DNA of 64,000 bases from an uncultured Rikenellaceae bacterium (GCA_944415565.1 CALYBQ010000005.1:106061-170060), one strand, 5' to 3'. Counted from the stretch's first letter, positions 3,649-18,517 are shown. Notes: generated by a model from the letters alone, not told the origin. Made by a program: numbers and translations.

Positions 3649-3752
3649 AATAACAACAGGAGGCGTCTCGGAAATCTTTGCAAACAAGCTTGCTCCGATT
3701 TCTCTCGGCTTTCACTATATTTGTCGTTATTGAATATAAAACGCAATTACCT

Positions 3753-5891
3753 TTGAAAAAGATCATAACATCCGCCCTGCTGGCACTATGCTCCGTCGTA
3801 GCACTATTCGCAGAAGATCCTGTTTCTTGGACCTTCGACCTCACCGGAGGAGAAAACGGAGAAATAGAACTCAGGGCAACCGCCACTATCGAAAAAGATT
3901 GGCACATATACGATCCCGGCATCGGTGATGGCGGACCGTTTCCCACGACGTTGGAAATCGAAGAGATCGTCGGCGCTGAAACGATAGAAAGATTCTCCGC
4001 TGTTGATTCGAAGCGCATAGACACCTATGACGAAATCTTCGGTATGGACATCAGCTACTATGAAGGCAAGGCTACATTCGTACAGCGTTTCCGCATCACT
4101 GACCGCACGGCATTCGCGCTGAAGGGCGACATCCGCGCAAGCGCATGCAAAGAGGGCGTATGTACGCCGCCGATACCGGTCAATTTCTCATTCTCATCGA
4201 AGGATCTGCCGGCGACTTTGATCGCAGAGCAAAAGACGGGAGACACGCATGCCGCGAGCGACGACAGTACCGTCGCCCAGCCCGGCAAGTCTGAAAAGAA
4301 CGGAAGCGAAACACGGTCTTCTACGACACAACCTGTCGTCTTCTCCCAAATCAAATCCGGGGAGAAAGGGCAGAAAACAATCACGACCGCAGAAAACCCT
4401 ATCACAAGCGCCCCCACCTTTTTGGCTGAAACCATAGCGGCAAATACAAATGACGAGCCGGACCTGTGGAGACCGGTAATAGACGAACTGCGGACATTCG
4501 GTGCGGCAGGCAGCACGGCCGACAGGTCGCTCGTATGGATATTCATACTGGGATTCGGGGGAGGACTGCTCGCCCTGCTTACGCCGTGCGTGTGGCCGAT
4601 GATCCCGCTCACCGTGAGCTTCTTCCTCAAGCAAGGCAGGGACAAGAGATCGGCAGTGAAGGATGCCGTAGTTTACGGCCTATCCATCATAGTGATATAC
4701 GTCGGGCTGGGACTGGCCGTAACGGCAATATTCGGAGCCGGCGCACTCAACAGCTTGGCCACCAACGCGGTATTCAACCTCATATTCTTCGCCATGCTCG
4801 TGATTTTCGCCGTCTCGTTCTTCGGAGCGTTCGAGCTGACACTGCCGTCGCGGTGGACCAACAGGATGAACGCACAGGCCGACCGAACGAGCGGTCTCGC
4901 CAGCATATTCTTCATGGCATTCACGCTGACATTGGTCTCGTTCTCTTGCACCGGCCCGATCATCGGGACGCTTCTGGTAGACGCCGCCGGCTCGAAGGCC
5001 GTACTTGCCCCCATGACGGGCATGGCCGGATTCGCATTGGCATTGGCCATACCGTTCGCATTGTTCGCCATATTCCCCTCGTGGCTTAAAAATGCACCGC
5101 GCTCCGGCGGATGGATGAACTCAGTAAAGGTCGTTCTCGGATTCATCGAGCTGGCCCTCGCGCTGAAATTCCTCTCCGTCGCAGACCTCGCCTACGGCTG
5201 GGGAATACTCGACCGCGAAGTGTTCATAGTACTGTGGGCAGCGATAGCGCTTCTCCTCGGAGCCTACCTGCTCGGTTGGGTAAGGTTCAAAAACGACGGC
5301 GAACAAAAACACGTCTCTGTGCCGAAGATATTCCTATCGACCGTAGCGTTCTCATTCGCACTGTATATGCTGCCGGGCCTGTGGGGTGCACCGCTGAAAG
5401 CCGTAAGCGCCTTCCTGCCCCCCATGACCACACAGGATTTCAACCTTTACGACAACTCGGTACACGCCAAATTCGACGATTACGATGCCGGCATGGAGTA
5501 TGCCCGCCGCAACGGTAAACCAGTCATAATAGACTTTTCAGGGCTGGGATGCGTCAATTGTCGCGAAATGGAAGCCCGGGTATGGACCGATCCGCGCGTG
5601 AAGTCGATACTCGACAACGACTACGTACTCATAACCCTCATGGTGGACGACAGGCAACGGCTGCCGGAGACGATGGAGGTTGAAGAAAACGGGCGTATGG
5701 TGAAGCTCAAGACGGTAGGCGACAAATGGAGCTATCTCCAACGCCATAAGTTCGGGACGAGCTCCCAACCGTATTACGTTCTGTTAGATGCCGACGGCAA
5801 TCCGATAGGCCCGTCGTATGCCTACGACGAGGACATAGATAAGTACATACAATTCCTGAATACGGGGCTCGCCAATTTCAAAAACCGATAG
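3753..5891 (+). CDS. dsbD: thiol:disulfide interchange protein DsbD (protein-disulfide reductase)
   Basis: Signal peptide, then a periplasmic N-domain, a low-complexity S/T/Q-rich linker and a polytopic membrane core (LLALLTPCVWPMIPL...). The C-terminal thioredoxin domain carries GLGCVNCREME (CxxC). There is no in-frame ATG: the candidate starts are TTG at 3678 (ORF track) or TTG at 3753. The 3753 start yields a clean signal peptide (KKIITSALLALCSVVALFA). Confidence 0.8.
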   Translation: MKKIITSALLALCSVVALFAEDPVSWTFDLTGGENGEIELRATATIEKDWHIYDPGIGDGGPFPTTLEIEEIVGAETIERFSAVDSKRIDTYDEIFGMDISYYEGKATFVQRFRITDRTAFALKGDIRASACKEGVCTPPIPVNFSFSSKDLPATLIAEQKTGDTHAASDDSTVAQPGKSEKNGSETRSSTTQPVVFSQIKSGEKGQKTITTAENPITSAPTFLAETIAANTNDEPDLWRPVIDELRTFGAAGSTADRSLVWIFILGFGGGLLALLTPCVWPMIPLTVSFFLKQGRDKRSAVKDAVVYGLSIIVIYVGLGLAVTAIFGAGALNSLATNAVFNLIFFAMLVIFAVSFFGAFELTLPSRWTNRMNAQADRTSGLASIFFMAFTLTLVSFSCTGPIIGTLLVDAAGSKAVLAPMTGMAGFALALAIPFALFAIFPSWLKNAPRSGGWMNSVKVVLGFIELALALKFLSVADLAYGWGILDREVFIVLWAAIALLLGAYLLGWVRFKNDGEQKHVSVPKIFLSTVAFSFALYMLPGLWGAPLKAVSAFLPPMTTQDFNLYDNSVHAKFDDYDAGMEYARRNGKPVIIDFSGLGCVNCREMEARVWTDPRVKSILDNDYVLITLMVDDRQRLPETMEVEENGRMVKLKTVGDKWSYLQRHKFGTSSQPYYVLLDADGNPIGPSYAYDEDIDKYIQFLNTGLANFKNR

Positions 5892-7553: not shown

Positions 7554-8982
7554 TTCTATTCATCAACAATATGACGGCAACCGTAATCGCCAAAGTAACT
7601 ATGCCGGCCAGCACGGCGGCAGGCACGGTCGACAACCCGATCATCTCGGCAGACCCGAACAAATGATCGGACGTTATGAAGGTCATGAATATCGCCGGTA
7701 TCAGCGACAAGTATATGTTTTTCTTTCGCGAATGCAGATAAACCGTTATCGTCCACAGCGTGAAAACGGCAAGTGTCTGGTTAGCCCAAGCAAAATAGCG
7801 CCATACGACATCGAACTGCATGAGCGTTATTGCAAAGCCCGCAATGAAGAGAGGAACCGATATATACAGTCGACGGCGTATCGTCCTCTGTTCCATTCCG
7901 AGAAAATCAGCGACTATGAGCCTCGCACTGCGGAAAGCCGTATCCCCAGTAGATATAGGCGCGGCTACTACCCCCAATAAGGCGAGCAATCCACCTACCT
8001 TGCCGAGCGTGGTGTTGGCGATATGGTCCACAGCCCATGCGGCATCGTTGCCGTGTGCTGCGAGCTCGTCGTTAAGCGCGCCTACGCCGCCGAAGAAAGC
8101 CATAGCGATAGCGGCCCAAATGAGAGCTATTATACTTTCGCTTATCATAGCGCCGAAAAATACCGGACGGCCTTCCTTCTCGTTGTTCACGCAACGCGCC
8201 ATAAGCGGCGACTGCGTAGCGTGGAATCCTGATATAGCCCCGCAGGCTATGGTGATGAACATGGTCGGGATGATCGGGAATTTCGCCGCATCGGTCTTCA
8301 TATTGGCAAACCCGCTGAATTCCGGCATATCGTACCCGCCGAATATCAACACTGCAAATATGCCCACAGCCATGAATATCAGCGCCGCACCGAAAAGCGG
8401 GTAGATCTTACCGATGATTTTATCGACCGGCAACAAGGTCGCCACAACATAATATATAAGTATCACCCACACCCAGAATTTCGGGATCGTCACGCTACCT
8501 ATGGTCAGGTCTGCGAATCCGGTCAGGCCGTTGAGTATGCCAGCGGGCCCGAGCATGAATACGGCTCCGACCAATACAAGCAACAACACCGTGAAGACCC
8601 TCATAAACTGCTTGACGGTCACACCTAAATATTTGCCGACGATCTCCGGCAGGCTTAATCCGTTATTCTGCAAAGAGATCATGCCAGACACGTAATCGTG
8701 CATGGCTCCGAAGAAAATGCCGCCGAGCGTGATCCACAAAAACGCTACCGGCCCATAGGTCGCACCGAGTACAGCTCCGAAAATAGGCCCCAATCCGGCA
8801 ATGTTAAGAAGCTGGATAAGAAAGGTTTTCCATTTCGGAAGCGGCAGATAATCCACACCGTCATAGCACGTTTTAGACGGACATTCCTTTGCCCTGTCAG
8901 CGCCTACCACACGCTCCAAATACCTACCGTAGGTGAAGTAAGCACCCACAAGCAGAGCAAGGCATACGATAAAAGTGACCAT
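7531..8982 (-). CDS. cstA: carbon starvation protein A (CstA family peptide/pyruvate transporter)
   Basis: 483 aa polytopic membrane protein. The N-terminus MVTFIVCLALLVGAYFTYGRYLERV...LLNIAGLGPIFGAVLGATYGP is characteristic of the CstA family. Confidence 0.85.
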   Translation of the reverse strand: MVTFIVCLALLVGAYFTYGRYLERVVGADRAKECPSKTCYDGVDYLPLPKWKTFLIQLLNIAGLGPIFGAVLGATYGPVAFLWITLGGIFFGAMHDYVSGMISLQNNGLSLPEIVGKYLGVTVKQFMRVFTVLLLVLVGAVFMLGPAGILNGLTGFADLTIGSVTIPKFWVWVILIYYVVATLLPVDKIIGKIYPLFGAALIFMAVGIFAVLIFGGYDMPEFSGFANMKTDAAKFPIIPTMFITIACGAISGFHATQSPLMARCVNNEKEGRPVFFGAMISESIIALIWAAIAMAFFGGVGALNDELAAHGNDAAWAVDHIANTTLGKVGGLLALLGVVAAPISTGDTAFRSARLIVADFLGMEQRTIRRRLYISVPLFIAGFAITLMQFDVVWRYFAWANQTLAVFTLWTITVYLHSRKKNIYLSLIPAIFMTFITSDHLFGSAEMIGLSTVPAAVLAGIVTLAITVAVILLMNRNGKKGIA

Positions 8983-9064
8983 ATATTTTTATTTTTATGT
9001 CGCGAAGATAATGATTTTTACAGAATATTTATGATATTTGCACCCTGTAAGGGGAAACCCTCAG

Positions 9065-9137
9065 GCCGCAATAGCTCAGTTGGTAGAGCGTTTCACTCGT
9101 AATGAAGAGGTCGCGAGTTCAAGTCTCGCTTGCGGCT
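9065..9137 (+). tRNA. tRNA-Thr (anticodon CGT)
   Basis: Manual cloverleaf fold. Acceptor stem gccgcaa/ttgcggc, D-arm gctc-agttggta-gagc, anticodon stem tttca/tgaag with loop ctCGTaa, T-arm gcgag-ttcaagt-ctcgc, discriminator T. CCA is not encoded. Confidence 0.85.
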
Positions 9138-9143
9138 CAGTTT

Positions 9144-9181
9144 GCAGTAACCTGCGTAATACGCAGGTTACTGCTTTTTTT
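9144..9181 (+). terminator. rho-independent terminator after tRNA-Thr
   Basis: Perfect 14-bp stem gcagtaacctgcgt / acgcaggttactgc with loop aat, followed by TTTTTTT. Confidence 0.8.
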
Positions 9182-9247
9182 GCATAAACCATACGAACAC
9201 CGCGCAACAAACATATATCATTCATTGATTGACAACAAATGGTTTAT

Positions 9248-9255
9248 TATATTTG
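9248..9255 (+). promoter_or_regulatory. putative -7 promoter element (TATATTTG) for the islet operon
   Basis: TAnnTTTG match lying 44 nt upstream of the ATG at 9299. No clean -33 TTTG (only ATTG/TTGA nearby). Confidence 0.35.
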
Positions 9256-9298
9256 TGTGTACAACACAAACAATTTGCAATAGTAAAGATTTAAACCA

Positions 9299-9568
9299 AT
9301 GGCGGTATTTTTAGTCTCGGGTCTCATTCTCGCTGTTTTCGTTTCGGCTAACACCGACTCAGCAAAAGATGTTTTGCTATCCCAAGTCGAAGCTATCGCT
9401 AAATGCGAAGCAACGGTAACATGCTCCGGTGAGACAAAAATCTCATGCGAGCGCAAAAAAGACGGCACATGTTCATCTAACAATGATGAAAAAGGCGCAG
9501 GGTATGTCTTATGCTCAGGTGGAGGAGACCCTGATGTCAAAAAGAACTGTAGCTTTTTTAATTCTTAA
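9299..9568 (+). CDS. small secreted cysteine-rich protein, NVEALA-like (PF14055-type) peptide
   Basis: 89 aa with an N-terminal hydrophobic signal/anchor (MAVFLVSGLILAVFVSA). It carries the motif LSQVEAIAKCE, resembling the NVEALA signature. The predicted mature part has six Cys, with Gly/Asp/Lys-rich spacers. AT-rich codon usage. Confidence 0.55.
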   Translation: MAVFLVSGLILAVFVSANTDSAKDVLLSQVEAIAKCEATVTCSGETKISCERKKDGTCSSNNDEKGAGYVLCSGGGDPDVKKNCSFFNS

Positions 9569-9578
9569 ACCATTTATT

Positions 9579-10628
9579 ATGTATATTTTCAGAAAGCTTC
9601 AAAATCTGAAGCGCATCGTTATACCATGTCTATTATTAACAATAACAGCATTCACTTCATGCAAAACCGATAAATTCGATGAGCATATAATTTATCTTAC
9701 TTCAGACAAAGAAATAGACCAATTATCGGATTCCACATTCTTTAGTTCAACAAAATGCATGGTTGAATATGATGGATATATATATGCATCATTATCTCAA
9801 CGGATGCAAATTATCTGTATGGACAAGAACCTGCAATTAAAAAAAACAATCGGCAAACATGGTCGTGGACCTCAAGAGTTCATATATATAGACTGTTTTT
9901 TCATATACGACAGTATATTATGGGTCGGAAACACAGGACAACTGGCACTTATGAAATTTACTCTTGACGGCAACTTTATCAGCACGGAACACAAAACGAA
10001 AAAAAAATACTCTTTAAATGAGCGCTTTGCTGTAGATGATTCTAAAATCTATTTTTCAAAACCGAATATCGACAAAAAAACGTCCTTAGCCGTTATTGAT
10101 TTAAATAAACCAAAGGATAACAATTATAAGGAATTTGGAGCCTTTACCGATTTCGGTCAATCGTATAAAAATAAAATACAAAACAAAAGAGATGTTTTCA
10201 TTACAGACGATTATATCATAACCGTACCAGAAAGCATTCCGGTAATTGAAAAATATGACAAAAATTCTTTAGAACTAATAGAGACATACGACCTCCTGAC
10301 CATCCCCGTCATAGCCGAGGCACTTGAAGCAACTCTCAACCACCCTGATATCGCCGATCCTATCACTACATATTCCATAGCAAGGGATGCCTATCTGCAT
10401 AACGGCATATTATACATAATGCTTCCAACACCAACCATAAAAATGAAAGACGGTCACAAAGAGTACACAGGCATTATGGCTTTCGACATAAAAGACAATA
10501 TCAAATATTTACACCGTTATCCATTCAATGAAGACATGAATATTTTCTGTGTAACCGACGAGTATATTTTTACGGCACCGCTTACAGGCGGAGTCATTAA
10601 AAGATTCCCGCTAAACCCGGAACAATAA
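9579..10628 (+). CDS. lipoprotein, probable 6-bladed beta-propeller (NHL/TolB-like; BF3164/DUF5128-like)
   Basis: Start at the ATG giving the lipobox MYIFRKLQNLKRIVIPCLLLTITAFTSC. The ORF track starts further upstream at 9429, overlapping the peptide gene. Contains GKHGRGPQEF, an NHL/propeller-like motif. About 349 aa, lying 10 nt after the peptide gene. Confidence 0.55.
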   Translation: MYIFRKLQNLKRIVIPCLLLTITAFTSCKTDKFDEHIIYLTSDKEIDQLSDSTFFSSTKCMVEYDGYIYASLSQRMQIICMDKNLQLKKTIGKHGRGPQEFIYIDCFFIYDSILWVGNTGQLALMKFTLDGNFISTEHKTKKKYSLNERFAVDDSKIYFSKPNIDKKTSLAVIDLNKPKDNNYKEFGAFTDFGQSYKNKIQNKRDVFITDDYIITVPESIPVIEKYDKNSLELIETYDLLTIPVIAEALEATLNHPDIADPITTYSIARDAYLHNGILYIMLPTPTIKMKDGHKEYTGIMAFDIKDNIKYLHRYPFNEDMNIFCVTDEYIFTAPLTGGVIKRFPLNPEQ

Positions 10629-10629
10629 T

Positions 10630-11172
10630 ATGAGACTGTGCTTATTAATAATAACCATTGCCACTATAATATGTTCATACGGCTGTAAAAATATAATTGA
10701 CGGCAACAATCGAGGAACGTCACAAACGACAAAAGCCGTACCGACCAAAAGAGACTCTTTAGCCCGCGAAAAAGACCAACGGTTACTGAGCACACTATAC
10801 AACAAGGAGGCCGCTGTTTTCAATACGATCATACCTGATCTGAAAAATGAAAACAGGAACATTATCCTCGTGGTCAGTAAATTCGATTGCGTAACCTGTG
10901 TCGAGGCCGGATTCGATATCATAAGGCAGATAAAAAAGATCAACCGGGCAGCACATACCTACGTCGTCGGTGTAACAAAAGAGGTTTACATCCCCGAACA
11001 GTACAAATACACTGTATACGAAGATATCGACCAAAATGTACAAACCGCGCTAAATTATGCCCCCACACCCGTCATCCTCATATTGAACGGCAATCGCATA
11101 ATCGACCTATATAGTCCGTATGACTCTAAATCGTTATTCGCCACGGATTTCATCAATGAACATTCATATTAA
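10630..11172 (+). CDS. lipoprotein with thioredoxin-like CxxC motif (TlpA/redoxin-like)
   Basis: Lipobox LLIITIATIICSYGC. ILVVSKFDCVTCVEAGFDII is a beta-strand, CxxC, helix arrangement as in thioredoxin-fold oxidoreductases. Starts 1 nt after the upstream stop, so translationally coupled. Confidence 0.5.
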   Translation: MRLCLLIITIATIICSYGCKNIIDGNNRGTSQTTKAVPTKRDSLAREKDQRLLSTLYNKEAAVFNTIIPDLKNENRNIILVVSKFDCVTCVEAGFDIIRQIKKINRAAHTYVVGVTKEVYIPEQYKYTVYEDIDQNVQTALNYAPTPVILILNGNRIIDLYSPYDSKSLFATDFINEHSY

Positions 11173-11220
11173 CGGCAGCGATAATAATTTGATAATATAC
11201 CATTAACACTTACATCAATA

Positions 11221-11249
11221 CCCCCGGACTGTTTAACTCCGGGGGTTTT
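11221..11249 (+). terminator. rho-independent terminator closing the islet operon
   Basis: Stem cccccgga / tccggggg with a 9-nt loop, followed by TTTT. Confidence 0.6.
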
Positions 11250-11272
11250 CACTGCTCGGACAATAACAACAA

Positions 11273-11845
11273 TTATCTTCCACCATTCCACTCGTAGCGC
11301 TCCCCATCAATGCCGAGCAACGAAAGGATGCGTTCCACGACCGTCATGCAGAGCTGCTCAATGTCGGCAGGGTGCGAATAAAACGACGGCGACGCCGGAA
11401 GCACCACAGCCCCGCATTCGGAAAGCGCCGTCATATTTCGGAGATGTATGGTCCCGTATGGAGTTTCGCGGGCGACCAATATCAGACGCCGACGCTCTTT
11501 GAGCATGACGTCGGCGGCACGGGTTATCAGATTATCGGATACGCAGTTAGCTATGCGCCCCAGCGTTCCCATAGAACACGGCACGATCACCATAGAATCA
11601 TAGGCTGCTGAGCCGGATGCCGGTGCGGCGAACAGATCGTCATTATCGAAGTACCGCACACGCGGATCATCGCCGCCCGACGGGATATTTTGCTTTTCGT
11701 ACTCGGCCACCGCCAACCCGTTTGTACTGAATACGACGGCCACCTCGGACACCGCGCCTGAACGCAAAAGACACTCCACAAGCAGGCGGGCATATATCGA
11801 GCCGCTCGCTCCCGTAACACCCACTACTATCCTGCGTCCTGTCAT
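11273..11845 (-). CDS. ubiX: UbiX-family flavin prenyltransferase
   Basis: 190 aa. MTGRRIVVGVTGASGSIYARLL... and ...CSMGTLGRIANCVSDNLITRAADVMLKERRRLILVARETP are typical of UbiX/Pad1. Confidence 0.85.
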   Translation of the reverse strand: MTGRRIVVGVTGASGSIYARLLVECLLRSGAVSEVAVVFSTNGLAVAEYEKQNIPSGGDDPRVRYFDNDDLFAAPASGSAAYDSMVIVPCSMGTLGRIANCVSDNLITRAADVMLKERRRLILVARETPYGTIHLRNMTALSECGAVVLPASPSFYSHPADIEQLCMTVVERILSLLGIDGERYEWNGGR

Positions 11846-15097: not shown

Positions 15098-15664
15098 ATG
15101 GCAACTACCGCAGATATAAAGAACGGAATGTGTATCGAGCTGAACGGCAAAACGTTCAGCATCGTGGAATTCCAGCATGTAAAACCGGGCAAGGGCCCAG
15201 CATTCGTCCGCACGAAACTCAAGAATCTGGAAAACGGCCGTCTTATAGACAACACCTTTTCGGCAGGAGAGAAGATCGAACCGGTACGCGTAGAACGCCG
15301 TCCGTACCAGTATCTCTACGACGACGACATGGGCAGCAACTTCATGCACACCGAGACTTTCGAACAAATATCCATCAACAAGGACCTTATCGACAACGCC
15401 GACCTCATGGCCGAAGGGCAGATCGTGGAGGTGATGTTCCATACGGATAAAGACATGGTTCTTTCAGCCGAACTCCCGCCGATCATCGACATGGAGGTCA
15501 CATATACAGAACCGGGCGTCAAAGGCGACACAGCATCGTCAAACTCCCTGAAACCAGCGACTGTAAATACCGGTGCTACGGTAAGGGTCCCGCTGTTCAT
15601 CAATACCGGTGAGAAAATCCGCGTAGACACCCGCACCCGCGAGTATTACGAAAGGATAAAATAA
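15098..15664 (+). CDS. efp: elongation factor P
   Basis: [44 protein letters not shown]... is an EF-P signature. Start trimmed to Met20 of the ORF-track protein. Confidence 0.9.
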
Positions 15665-15733: not shown

Positions 15734-16065
15734 CCTGTGACCAATGCGTAACACTCTCCCCCAACGCCCCCGCAACAGGCCATTTTATACAAATCTGGTC
15801 GCAGAATTGAACGTTTTGACCAATTTTCACATTTATTCACAAAAAGAATTTGTTTTACATTGAGAATGTTTATATTTGCGTTTAGAGCATTGGACTTTTA
15901 AGGGAACATTACGACGTCGATTTACATCCGATCAAGGGGAACGGCGTGGTTGTGTTCCATATTAGTGGGTATAAAAAACCTGCACCCATTTTTCCACTGC
16001 CGAAATTAACACAACAGGGAAACTCAGAAACGAAAACCAAGAATAACTTAAAACCAATAACCACG

Positions 16066-17688
16066 ATGAAAAAACTTTTACCCTTGTTACTCTTAGGTGT
16101 GACTGCGATGTTCTTCTCGTGCGAGTCCTATGACAAGAATGAAGGTAAAGCCAATGCGCCGCAAGCCTCATTCCTCGTCGCACAGCAGACACTCCCGTTC
16201 ATGGGCGAGATCACTGTAAAAGTAGTCCTCGACAAACCGGCAGAGCAAGACTTAACTATACCTTTCACTGTTGTAGGTAGCGCAACAGAAAATAGGCATT
16301 ATGAATTTATCGGCCTGCCGACAACCCCGGACGGAGAGGAAACGATACACGAACTCACATTCTTGCGAGGTGAAACGGAAACCTCTTTCGGATTGAAACA
16401 CATGATGGTCAATGCAGATCCTGTTTTGGCACAAATTGCACTTGACCGAAGCGAGGACGGCAGCTATTCGCTGAGTGACAAAAAGCAAATCCTTATCAGG
16501 ATCGACCAGAGGGAAAACGTACTGGTAAGTTTCACCCAGAATGAATACCTTACACGCGAATTCTCTAATATTACATTGAATTTTACTCTTACCGGAGAAG
16601 TGACGGGAACGGAATATACCGCACCTAACGACTTAAACGTACAAATGACTGTCGTTCCAATATCTACGTCCATATACCAACCACAGATCACCAATGTCCC
16701 CAGCAATGCTTATAAATGGCTCGACGGCAGCACTGCGACAGTAGAGTTGGGAGAAAACACGGACTCGCTCGCATTAGGTATCAGCTACATCAACCAGACA
16801 AGCCCTAACGCGCCTAATGATCCGGATCCAATCTTTACCAGAGGAGACGATTGGCCGGAAGGATACCACTATCGTTTAGGGGTCACATTTACAGGATTGT
16901 CCAACGGCCTTATATTGGGCGATATAGACACTACATATATATATGTAAAAAGGTTGGAAGATCCGATTGAAGAGATACTTATGCAGCATCATTGGATCAA
17001 CCCGACATGGGGCTTGGATCTGTACGAAGCCCTTTCTAAAAAGGAAGCCCTGTTGAAGAAACTCGACCAAACAGGGGATACCAGTTGGGGAGATATGCCG
17101 CGAAACAACTACTATGAGGATGAAATATGGTTCGAAAAAGTTGAAGGAACCGGAGAGATTGATCCGGAAACAGGAGAAATAGACCATAAATACTACATCC
17201 ACATCGAAACAGCATATCCTAATGATGATATAAACAGGCGAAGCGACTTCGTGAAATTCTTCAAACCCGGCCCGATGGTCAACAGGGACGAACAGAACCG
17301 TAAATACGAGAACTTGGAACAACGTAACCACCCGCTCGGATCAGCAGCATACGGTTTGAAGATGAGGGTTCCGGCCAATAAAAAATTCAGTTGGAAAGAG
17401 ACCAACTTAGTGCCTCCGGGACTTGATACTGTCAACATCTACAAAGAAGGTGTGGAACCGGTAGATGGCAGCAACGTAATCATCATACCTTCGAGTGTAA
17501 TGGGCGATAACGAGGAATCGTGGATAGATATATGTATCCTGCAAGGTTCGTGGGAAAGGACACCATATAATTTCATGTATGTCTTTGAAAATTGGGAGGA
17601 CCCTGACAATCCGGGAAACCAGCCGTACTTAGGCTCAAAGAATCCTCGAAACTTCGACATATGGTTCAGGTTGTATAAGAAACAATAA
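16066..17688 (+). CDS. hypothetical surface lipoprotein
   Basis: Start at MKKLLPLLLLGVTAMFFSCES (lipobox), inside ORF-track 15946..17688. 540 aa, Thr/Asn/Asp-rich, with no catalytic motif recognised. Confidence 0.55.
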   Translation: MKKLLPLLLLGVTAMFFSCESYDKNEGKANAPQASFLVAQQTLPFMGEITVKVVLDKPAEQDLTIPFTVVGSATENRHYEFIGLPTTPDGEETIHELTFLRGETETSFGLKHMMVNADPVLAQIALDRSEDGSYSLSDKKQILIRIDQRENVLVSFTQNEYLTREFSNITLNFTLTGEVTGTEYTAPNDLNVQMTVVPISTSIYQPQITNVPSNAYKWLDGSTATVELGENTDSLALGISYINQTSPNAPNDPDPIFTRGDDWPEGYHYRLGVTFTGLSNGLILGDIDTTYIYVKRLEDPIEEILMQHHWINPTWGLDLYEALSKKEALLKKLDQTGDTSWGDMPRNNYYEDEIWFEKVEGTGEIDPETGEIDHKYYIHIETAYPNDDINRRSDFVKFFKPGPMVNRDEQNRKYENLEQRNHPLGSAAYGLKMRVPANKKFSWKETNLVPPGLDTVNIYKEGVEPVDGSNVIIIPSSVMGDNEESWIDICILQGSWERTPYNFMYVFENWEDPDNPGNQPYLGSKNPRNFDIWFRLYKKQ

Positions 17689-17704
17689 CTCTATACGAAC
17701 ATAT

Positions 17705-17735
17705 AAAAATCCGGCCTTGAAGCCGGATTTTTATA
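17705..17735 (+). terminator. rho-independent terminator
   Basis: Stem aaatccggc / gccggattt with loop cttgaa, followed by TTTTAT. Confidence 0.7.
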
Positions 17736-17992
17736 TTAATACCAATTGATACACCTTATCTTGATTTCGGATAGCTTTTAATGCCACTAAGGTTACGCAA
17801 CAGATACCATTTAAACATTCAGGCTGCCACCAGACGCCAATATTTCCCTATAACAACATAGCCCTAACGCAATAATCCTATCTTCACAGTACTTGCTTGC
17901 ATCGACAGGACAAGGTTTATACGCATACCTGACTTACGGACAATTATATTTAAATTTGCATCGATAGGGATGCCATAACAATCGACATAAAG

Positions 17993-18517
17993 ATGCAAAA
18001 AGAGAAAACAAAATTAGACGAGCTATCCGCAGACGAACTGAGACAACTGGTTAGGATTTATGCTCGCAACATATATGCGCTGGACGGCGTATGGTTCCAG
18101 TCCATAGAAGCGACTGACGGCATGGACACCGCCATGCACCATGACCGTGAAGCATGGCGCAGGTTTACAGTGACCGAGGCTCGCCGTATCAAGAATTTCC
18201 TCGGACTCGAAGAACACTCCGGACTCGACGGATTGGAACAAGCCCTCTCCATCCGATTCTCGGCTCTCGCCAACCCTAAAGTCGAACTACTGCGGGAAGG
18301 CGACGCATTGACCTACCGCGTCGTAGAGTGCCGTGTCCAAAGCGCACGCAAAGAGAAAGGCATGCCATTCCATCCATGTGCATCCGTTGGAATCATAGAA
18401 CATGCAGATTTCGCCCGTGTAATCGACGACCGGATAGTTGCAGAAATGGTAAGTTGTTACCCTACCGTATCGGACCAATCGTGCGCTTGCTGCTGGCGGT
18501 TAACTCTGAAAAGTTAA
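17993..18517 (+). CDS. hypothetical protein
   Basis: 174 aa, with no TM segment and a Cys cluster at the C-terminus (CACCW). Function unknown. Confidence 0.45.
   Translation: MQKEKTKLDELSADELRQLVRIYARNIYALDGVWFQSIEATDGMDTAMHHDREAWRRFTVTEARRIKNFLGLEEHSGLDGLEQALSIRFSALANPKVELLREGDALTYRVVECRVQSARKEKGMPFHPCASVGIIEHADFARVIDDRIVAEMVSCYPTVSDQSCACCWRLTLKS

Follow-up and report, generated by a model that had tools for sequence, protein, structure and literature searches.

We characterized a short AT-rich islet in a 64,000-nt stretch of DNA from an uncultured Rikenellaceae bacterium (GCA_944415565.1 CALYBQ010000005.1:106061–170060; hereafter the window, with positions counted from its first letter). 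The islet (9139–11272; 2134 bp, GC 0.379) was defined by the loss of blastn similarity to a sister species and fills a variable slot, the left edge of which is the 3′ end of a tRNA-Thr(CGT) gene (9065–9138, + strand; ARAGORN, and 72 bits with the Rfam tRNA model) and the right edge the stop codon of the convergent flavin prenyltransferase gene ubiX (11273–11845, − strand; Pfam and NCBIfam). Three + strand open reading frames (ORFs) occupy it: p89 (9299–9568), which encodes a small six-cysteine protein; prop349 (9579–10628), which encodes a predicted β-propeller lipoprotein; and lipo180 (10630–11172), which encodes a putative thioredoxin-like lipoprotein. The genes are separated by 10 nt (p89/prop349) and 1 nt (prop349/lipo180), and identical calls for all three were made independently on another assembly. 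A terminator-like hairpin adjoins the tRNA gene (9144–9181, + strand; a 14-bp perfect stem at 9144–9174 followed by T7; −25 kcal/mol, z = −6.9), and a candidate Bacteroidetes −7 box, TATATTTG, is found at 9248–9255 (+ strand), with the first ATG 44 nt downstream. The box is a pattern match—44 such matches occur across the window, against 32 expected by chance—and is the sole + strand match in the islet. A closing hairpin (11220–11250, + strand; GC-rich 9-bp stem at 11220–11246, followed by TTTT) lies 27 nt from the ubiX stop codon. We predict that the triad constitutes a single operon served by a promoter box and terminator of its own, in agreement with the original prediction, which had described from the sequence a tight three-gene + strand operon in an AT-rich islet inserted immediately 3′ of tRNA-Thr.

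The composition of the islet deviates strongly from that of its surroundings. GC content falls from 0.50–0.57 before the islet to 0.32–0.44 (about 9000–11250) and returns to 0.55 after it. The interval 9181–11250 has a GC of 0.378 (z = −5.0), against a mean of 0.507 (standard deviation (s.d.) 0.026, minimum 0.434) for the other 2.1-kb windows of the 64 kb, and the tetranucleotide distance from the window-wide profile peaks at the islet (0.45 versus a mean of 0.229, s.d. 0.040), making it the top tetranucleotide outlier of the 64 kb. GC at third codon positions (GC3) is 0.40, 0.36 and 0.49 in p89, prop349 and lipo180, respectively, compared with 0.62–0.70 in the flanking CstA, UbiX, deacetylase and DUF4837 genes, and uniform composition and codon usage across the interval are therefore excluded. 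The 60-nt counts made by eye that had first drawn attention to the drop were correct (31.7% GC at 9601–9660; 51.7% at 8881–8940).

The slot in related genomes

The sister species, a congener that we reached through the 90% cluster of CstA, is seen in four independent assemblies (L186, GCA_944325305.1; L187, GCA_949288665.1; L194; and L195). Its gene order is the same as that of the window on both sides of the slot (EF-P, Asd, DUF4837, PDA, UbiX, slot, tRNA-Thr(CGT), CstA, p234 (p235 in the window), radical-SAM), and flanking orthologues share 63–91% protein and 67–82% nucleotide identity, with a synonymous divergence (pS) of 0.58–0.78. Similarity by blastn extends to window base 9138, where the tRNA ends, and restarts within the 3′ end of ubiX; the UbiX proteins of the two species align to the last residue of the window protein (190; base 11276). 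When the tRNA genes of the window, its sister species and two relatives further away are aligned, one compensatory T-stem pair is the only difference before the tRNA ends, and the sequences 3′ of it are unrelated. Even the tRNA-proximal hairpin differs between the window and the sister species, at the same place, indicating that it belongs to the cargo rather than to the conserved flank. The sister slot spans 1.58 kb, has nothing in common with the islet and lacks all three genes of the triad; its cargo is one gene for a 162-aa XRE-type helix-turn-helix (HTH) protein (L186 4607–5095, − strand; also in L187, L194 and L195), the best PHROG matches of which are phage transcriptional regulators or repressors (E 8e-14). 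Between this HTH gene and the tRNA lies a stretch of about 750 bp that appears to be non-coding.

Given that a congener has the same flanks with unrelated cargo between exact breakpoints, what separates the 3′ end of the tRNA from the ubiX stop is a variable site with alternative cargo in the two congeners. The tRNA-Thr-to-ubiX junction thus exists in the sister species without the three genes, as an insertion would have it, and conservation of the triad at this position in all relatives, which would have marked an ancestral locus, was not seen. The empty site that the original prediction expected in a relative was not what the sister species offered: its slot is occupied, so the event may have been a replacement.

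Contigs of the window's own species, which is rare in public data, all carry the triad here (L001/L003, L004/L094, L093, L005–L009 and L096), with flanks at 97.5–100% DNA identity to the window. As all four haplotypes have the cassette at this position, it is fixed in the species and not currently mobile. The earlier suggestion of an old or minimal acquisition fits this fixation; the event may have been a gain here or a loss in the sister species.

More distant relatives are arranged differently around the slot. The best GTDB representatives matched by UbiX (Alistipes and Rikenellaceae) are only about 60% identical among the matches listed; they keep DUF4837–PDA–UbiX with EF-P next, and no tRNA-Thr lies within 7 kb of ubiX in the GTDB relatives among the matches listed. 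We rejected these genomes as an empty-site control because EF-P, not the tRNA, is downstream of ubiX. EF-P directly follows UbiX in five Rikenellaceae loci (L012, L013, L015, L020 and L025), and in the window (15098–15661) and the sister species it sits beyond DUF4837 and Asd; as its position differs between lineages, the ubiX 3′ junction is a lineage-specific rearrangement point on which the slot sits.

A CstA scan of metagenomes recovered relatives that are 57–79% identical. Four of these keep the divergent CstA/tRNA-Thr(CGT) pair and have genes of ordinary GC 3′ of the tRNA; neither the islet genes nor ubiX were found in the four. L117, L174 and L149 show this pattern, the CstA/tRNA-Thr pair being followed by other ordinary-GC genes. 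In L167 (CstA 72% identical), an AT-rich gene for a 228-aa protein (437–1123; GC 0.32) lies on the other side of the tRNA, between tRNA-Thr(CGT) and CstA. We did not find the triad in 80 loci from GTDB Bacteroidota or in 80 metagenome loci from relatives. For a further scan of JGI metagenomes, a first alignment of the thioredoxin-like subfamily was too diverse, and the narrower alignment then used found no relative. Five contigs (L095 and L097–L100) end inside the tRNA-Thr gene, about 110 nt upstream of CstA. Such short-read breaks are likely to arise because the tRNA sequence is common to other community members; contigs broken there show no slot content, so that surveys of presence and absence are biased.

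The three proteins and their co-occurrence

p89 has a signal-peptide-like N-terminus, a conserved LLSQVEAIAKCEA helix motif and six cysteines. The family to which it belongs follows one design: a signal-like start, LLSxVEA(L/I)AxCEA and then a domain of 50 residues in which six cysteines are conserved. Five of them are invariant in the alignment; the sixth is conserved but offset at the variable C-terminus, and a conserved Trp is absent from the alignment. After the signal-like segment, the motif reads QVEAIA in the window and QVEALG, TEALA, VEAIA, IEALS, VEALA or IEALA in relatives. p89 therefore has the features expected of NVEALA proteins, being short with a hydrophobic N-terminus and an NVEALA-type motif, and shares with members of Pfam NVEALA (PF14055) the signal-like N-terminus and the (N/Q/E)VEA(L/I)A motif. 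It differs from them in the distinctive six-cysteine C-terminal domain of its family and in sub-threshold scores (five of seven family members at 12.7–17.6 bits, E 0.003–0.11; cut-off 27 bits). By sequence p89 is close to an orphan: homology searches with it, both with the single sequence and with a profile, returned the same few cassettes only. In Bacteroides genomes, NVEALA and DUF5128 genes are usually neighbours.

prop349 has an invariant S27–C28 lipobox and an NHL-like GRGPxEF motif. Its Pfam scores are 19.9 bits for DUF5128 (PF17170) and 19.2 bits for TolB_like (PF15869), against cut-offs of 22.9 and 29.2 bits, respectively; homologues at 40–76% identity carry precomputed PF17170 matches. 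Taken with a structural model (predicted local distance difference test (pLDDT) 83, predicted template modelling score (pTM) 0.83), these features identify prop349 as a predicted NHL-type six-bladed β-propeller lipoprotein of DUF5128-like type. With the DUF5128/TolB_like lipoproteins it shares the modelled six-bladed fold, the GRGPxEF signature and the lipobox; it differs in its sub-threshold score and in that its family is always accompanied by a thioredoxin-like third gene. Few cysteines are conserved in the mature propeller (the invariant C324, and C28 at the site of lipidation).

The N-terminus of lipo180 ends in a lipobox (…SYGC) and is followed by a CVTC motif (C87 and C90) and a Thr146–Pro147 loop. 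We found no Pfam or NCBIfam match for this protein, which does have 110 relatives among 1.84 billion representatives. In 61 aligned members, C87 and C90 are invariant, T146–P147 is at least 90% conserved, and D86, D132 and L141 are nearly invariant. Existing models barely cover the family, with weak Thioredoxin_2 or AhpC-TSA matches in 5 of the 61 members. An AlphaFold2 model (pLDDT 88) compared with the PDB by Foldseek gave thioredoxin-superfamily folds for all of the top 50 matches, almost all of them extracytoplasmic thiol-disulfide oxidoreductases (including TlpA, ResA, StoA, Etrx1/2, SdbA, DsbE/F and FetE). The model thus places lipo180 as a TlpA/ResA-class thioredoxin-fold lipoprotein and putative oxidoreductase. 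It resembles TlpA, ResA, DsbE, Etrx and SdbA in the predicted fold, the CxxC motif, a T–P loop that by sequence is of the cis-Pro type, and a predicted lipid anchor and extracytoplasmic location; it differs in having 8–18% sequence identity to them and in belonging to a 110-member family that lacks an existing model.

A gene for a DsbD-like membrane thiol-disulfide transporter lies at 3678–5891 (+ strand), 3.3 kb from the islet, and its orthologue in strain L093 matches Pfam DsbD_N, DsbD_TM and Thioredoxin_7. DsbD proteins typically pass electrons to TlpA/ResA-type periplasmic thioredoxins. In place of DsbD, the sister species has a gene for a 269-aa protein, ArgRS and Dus, which marks a second synteny break at about 5900.

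The three genes behave as a unit. Searches recovered seven prop349 homologues at 40–99% identity (contigs L090/091, L092 and L181–L185), and the triad is complete in each of the six further cassettes that metagenome contigs yielded. One or two small ORFs homologous to p89 precede every related propeller gene found (one such ORF, in L182, had been missed by gene calling), and a lipo180 homologue follows each propeller gene, after 0–8 nt in most cassettes and 46 nt in L182. In 1.87 Mb of fetched Bacteroidota DNA, hidden Markov models of the three families match only these cassettes, and always together. The hosts range from 0.38 to 0.57 in GC and the contexts differ, with Wzy_C/TPR and transglutaminase-like genes beside the L090 cassette and, in L092, a further DUF5128 paralogue; co-occurrence across such differing contexts indicates that the triad moves as a unit. 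In L090, the gene directly before the cassette (192–2051) encodes a Wzy_C and TPR protein of the O-antigen-ligase family, and in a published Bacteroides thetaiotaomicron table the O-antigen ligase family protein BT0662 stands two genes from the '6-bladed beta-propeller' protein BT0664, which hints at a recurrent association.

A literature search found no paper on NVEALA, DUF5128/PF17170 or BF3164 relevant to the cargo. The novelty of the cargo is modest, as it lies close to annotated but unstudied families (NVEALA and DUF5128) and adds to them a thioredoxin-like partner family that has no model. It joins three uncharacterized families in an operon whose members strictly co-occur and whose biochemical logic can be put to the test, and offers a compact entry point to the NVEALA and six-bladed-propeller genes annotated in gut Bacteroidales.

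Strain variation and the origin of the cassette

Two tracts within prop349 differ sharply between strains of the window's species. In strain L093, tract A (9726–9906) differs at about 57 sites over 180 bp, and tract B (9959–10539) has about 31% nucleotide divergence in L004/L094; the flanks of both differ by about 1%. Tract B has sharp edges and one 6-bp indel, with pS 0.70, a synonymous substitution rate (dS) of about 2 and a ratio of non-synonymous to synonymous rates (dN/dS) of 0.14. This pS falls within the range found for the flanks between the window and the sister species, indicating that homologous recombination brought the tracts in from a donor whose distance is roughly that of another species. 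Tracts that are about 31% diverged in one gene of strains that are otherwise about 99% identical represent a clear case of inter-species recombination acting on an envelope lipoprotein. We rejected a diversity-generating retroelement or in-situ hypermutation, as bases other than adenine differ too, dS is saturated, the dN/dS is as low as 0.14 and the tract contains a 6-bp indel, and likewise gene conversion from a silent cassette within the window, for which the 64 kb contains no paralogue.

Frameshifts also distinguish the haplotypes. In L093, a change from A6 to A7 at 9455–9460 shifts the frame of p89 so that it runs into the long extension upstream of the propeller ORF; gene calling gave a 381-aa gene here. 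L005–L009 (and L096 where covered) have A8 reduced to A7 at 9839–9846 in prop349, together with a 2-bp deletion at 10831–10832 in lipo180. The changes in the A6 and A8 tracts may represent on/off switching by slipped-strand mispairing. Phase variation as the sole cause of the frameshifts was rejected, as the third change is a 2-bp deletion outside a repeat, which suggests that the L005–L009 lineage, at least, is decaying.

No mobility machinery accompanies the cassette. The islet contains only its three genes, among which neither an integrase nor a transposase was found by ORF, Pfam, PHROG or PADLOC analysis, and the last 38 nt of the tRNA share no exact word of at least 8 nt with 11100–11330 on either strand; the original prediction had likewise reported neither mobility genes nor a repeat of the tRNA 3′ end. 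Searches of phages and viral contigs with the three proteins gave no match, a plasmid search gave one distant propeller match only (23% identity), and PHROG, PADLOC and NCBIfam had no match for the window's cassette proteins. The tRNA-Thr gene beside the cassette is intact. With no integrase, att repeat or gene fragments, nothing indicates site-specific integration.

The islet is a lineage-specific, compositionally foreign three-gene cassette, and we consider it likely that this cassette is a horizontally acquired occupant of the variable slot. As the sister species has the same flanks around unrelated cargo, the cassette would have arrived, or replaced earlier cargo, horizontally after the flanks had come together. 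No mobility gene, att repeat or phage or viral copy points to a mode of transfer; the most likely route would be homologous recombination with conserved flanks, for example the tRNA, as its anchor, given that the same locus imports diverged tracts by recombination. Exact breakpoints at both ends, alternative cargo in a congener and no mobility machinery make this an unusually clean islet, and point to cassette exchange by homologous recombination rather than by integrases. Like other tRNA-flanking genomic islands and islets, it is deviant in composition, has a left edge that coincides exactly with the 3′ end of a tRNA gene and has a counterpart with different cargo between the conserved flanks of a congener; it differs from them in its size of only 2.1 kb, in lacking an integrase, a direct repeat of the tRNA end and mobility genes, and in its fixation in every strain sampled from the species. 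The most fitting label is a small islet without an integrase in a replacement slot that flanks a tRNA gene; features of this kind are known.

Two other origins have to be weighed. The triad may have stood between tRNA-Thr and ubiX in the common ancestor and been lost or overwritten in the sister species, its low GC being a property of the families. The presence of the triad at the same place in all conspecific haplotypes agrees with such an ancestral locus, and so does the tendency of cassettes elsewhere to fall below their neighbours in GC, which is clearest for the peptide and propeller genes. A donor of the recombinant tracts that is about as distant as a congener also implies homologous cassettes in other close lineages, and the sister cargo, with its repressor-like PHROG matches, resembles a remnant of a mobile element that could itself be the newcomer. 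However, the GC3 gap between cassette and flanks shows no amelioration, the triad is absent from the 80 GTDB and 80 metagenome loci and from the JGI metagenome scan, and the tRNA-proximal hairpin differs between the two species. On these grounds we regard an ancestral locus as unlikely.

Rather less probable still is that the islet is the remnant of an integrative element or prophage that targeted tRNA-Thr and lost its integrase and att sites, leaving the cargo operon behind. A boundary exactly at the tRNA 3′ end, the phage-type repressor-like HTH gene in the same slot of the sister species and the AT-rich gene beside this tRNA in L167 would all fit such a history. The islet itself retains no att-like repeat of even 8 nt and no integrase or pseudogene fragments: all other ORFs of at least 40 aa overlap the three genes in other frames, and only about 260 nt is non-coding. 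The three genes have no PHROG or viral match beyond the distant propeller match in plasmids, and the other cassettes are not beside the same flanking genes (a comparison made without a tRNA scan of these loci).

A proposed role at the cell envelope

The three proteins suggest a logic of maturation and binding, which we put forward by analogy and tentatively, at somewhat less than even odds. p89 would be exported by Sec; lipo180 would form or isomerize its three disulfides; and, at the envelope, the propeller lipoprotein would either process p89 or bind its conserved helix or its folded domain. Bacteroides lack general disulfide machinery (PMC6671954), and it is this lack in Bacteroidales that suggests lipo180 as the protein that forms the p89 disulfides. 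A precedent is found in the loci of bacteroidetocins (class IIf bacteriocins), the only cysteine peptides characterized from this order, in which a small cysteine-containing secreted peptide stands beside a dedicated thiol oxidoreductase that is required for full activity (PMC6671954). Those loci differ in having a double-glycine leader, an ABC/C39 exporter and a protein with five transmembrane segments, none of which is encoded in 9139–11272, and in lacking a propeller; their peptides have 4 cysteines in 42 aa, and p89 has a Sec-type N-terminus in place of the double-glycine leader. No sequence similarity between bacteroidetocins and the window proteins was found.

Other systems combine similar parts. 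In the methylamine dehydrogenase mau operon, a propeller heavy subunit and a disulfide-rich light subunit are encoded with the thioredoxin-like MauD. This cluster resembles the islet in uniting, in one operon, a propeller, a small protein with several disulfides and a thioredoxin-like assembly factor of the periplasm; it differs in that MauB is seven-bladed and MauA has a tryptophan-derived cofactor, whereas the p89 family has no conserved Trp and the islet has no redox partner genes. The plant protein SOQ1 contains thioredoxin-like and NHL-propeller domains. In human NHLRC2, a thioredoxin-like domain is fused to an NHL propeller (PDB 6gc1 description), from which it follows that such domains work together elsewhere. 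Both proteins differ from the triad in being eukaryotic and fused in one chain, with no small cysteine-rich protein.

The patchy distribution, mosaic alleles and frequent inactivation of the cassette make a role in strain-level interaction most likely, whether antagonism or a surface or envelope function. A bolder possibility, which we think doubtful, is that the triad is an undescribed, self-contained envelope system of Bacteroidales that makes and presents or releases a disulfide-rich effector—a toxin, signal or adhesin ligand—without an ABC exporter, and that its promoter-to-terminator cassette spreads by recombination in homologous flanks and diversifies through imported propeller segments. 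If true, this would provide a first function for the large uncharacterized NVEALA and DUF5128 families of gut Bacteroidales.

Overall, the best explanation is that an acquired cassette encodes an envelope triad with the proposed maturation logic, and we give this a probability of about 0.6. Several observations weigh against it. Both of the Pfam scores of prop349 are below cut-off, and the window p89 gives no NVEALA match even at E ≤ 10; nor does the islet encode a transporter, a peptidase or a route across the outer membrane. Frameshifts in two of the four haplotypes make the cassette dispensable, and some of the population may have it decaying or switched off. All strains sampled from the species (four haplotypes) have the cassette at this site, no integrase, transposase, att repeat, phage or viral copy was found for it, and the sister species could instead have lost it, so that either cargo may be the older one.

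A more specific function is that of a Sec-dependent antibacterial peptide system, with p89 as a disulfide-rich toxin matured by lipo180 and the propeller as an immunity or processing factor. The pairing of peptide and thiol oxidoreductase in bacteroidetocin loci gives it a precedent, antagonism loci typically show such a patchy distribution together with mosaic alleles and on/off haplotypes, and one member of the p89 family weakly matches a defensin-like family (E 0.033). We nevertheless judge it quite unlikely, as no ABC/C39 exporter, double-glycine leader or target was identified and the dN/dS of 0.14 in the recombinant tract reflects purifying rather than diversifying selection. It is improbable that the propeller is instead an enzyme (PAL-like, or lactonase- or phytase-like) acting on the peptide or an unrelated substrate and is itself served by the thioredoxin-like protein, as it has 8–13% sequence identity to those enzymes and few conserved cysteines in its mature part.

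Elsewhere in the window, a second stretch of low GC (0.43–0.45) at 15946–17688 (+ strand) holds an ORF of 580 aa. Its orthologues have no Pfam match and vary in length between strains (526 and 540 aa), and differences between strains cluster just downstream of it, at 17600–18000 and around 18400.

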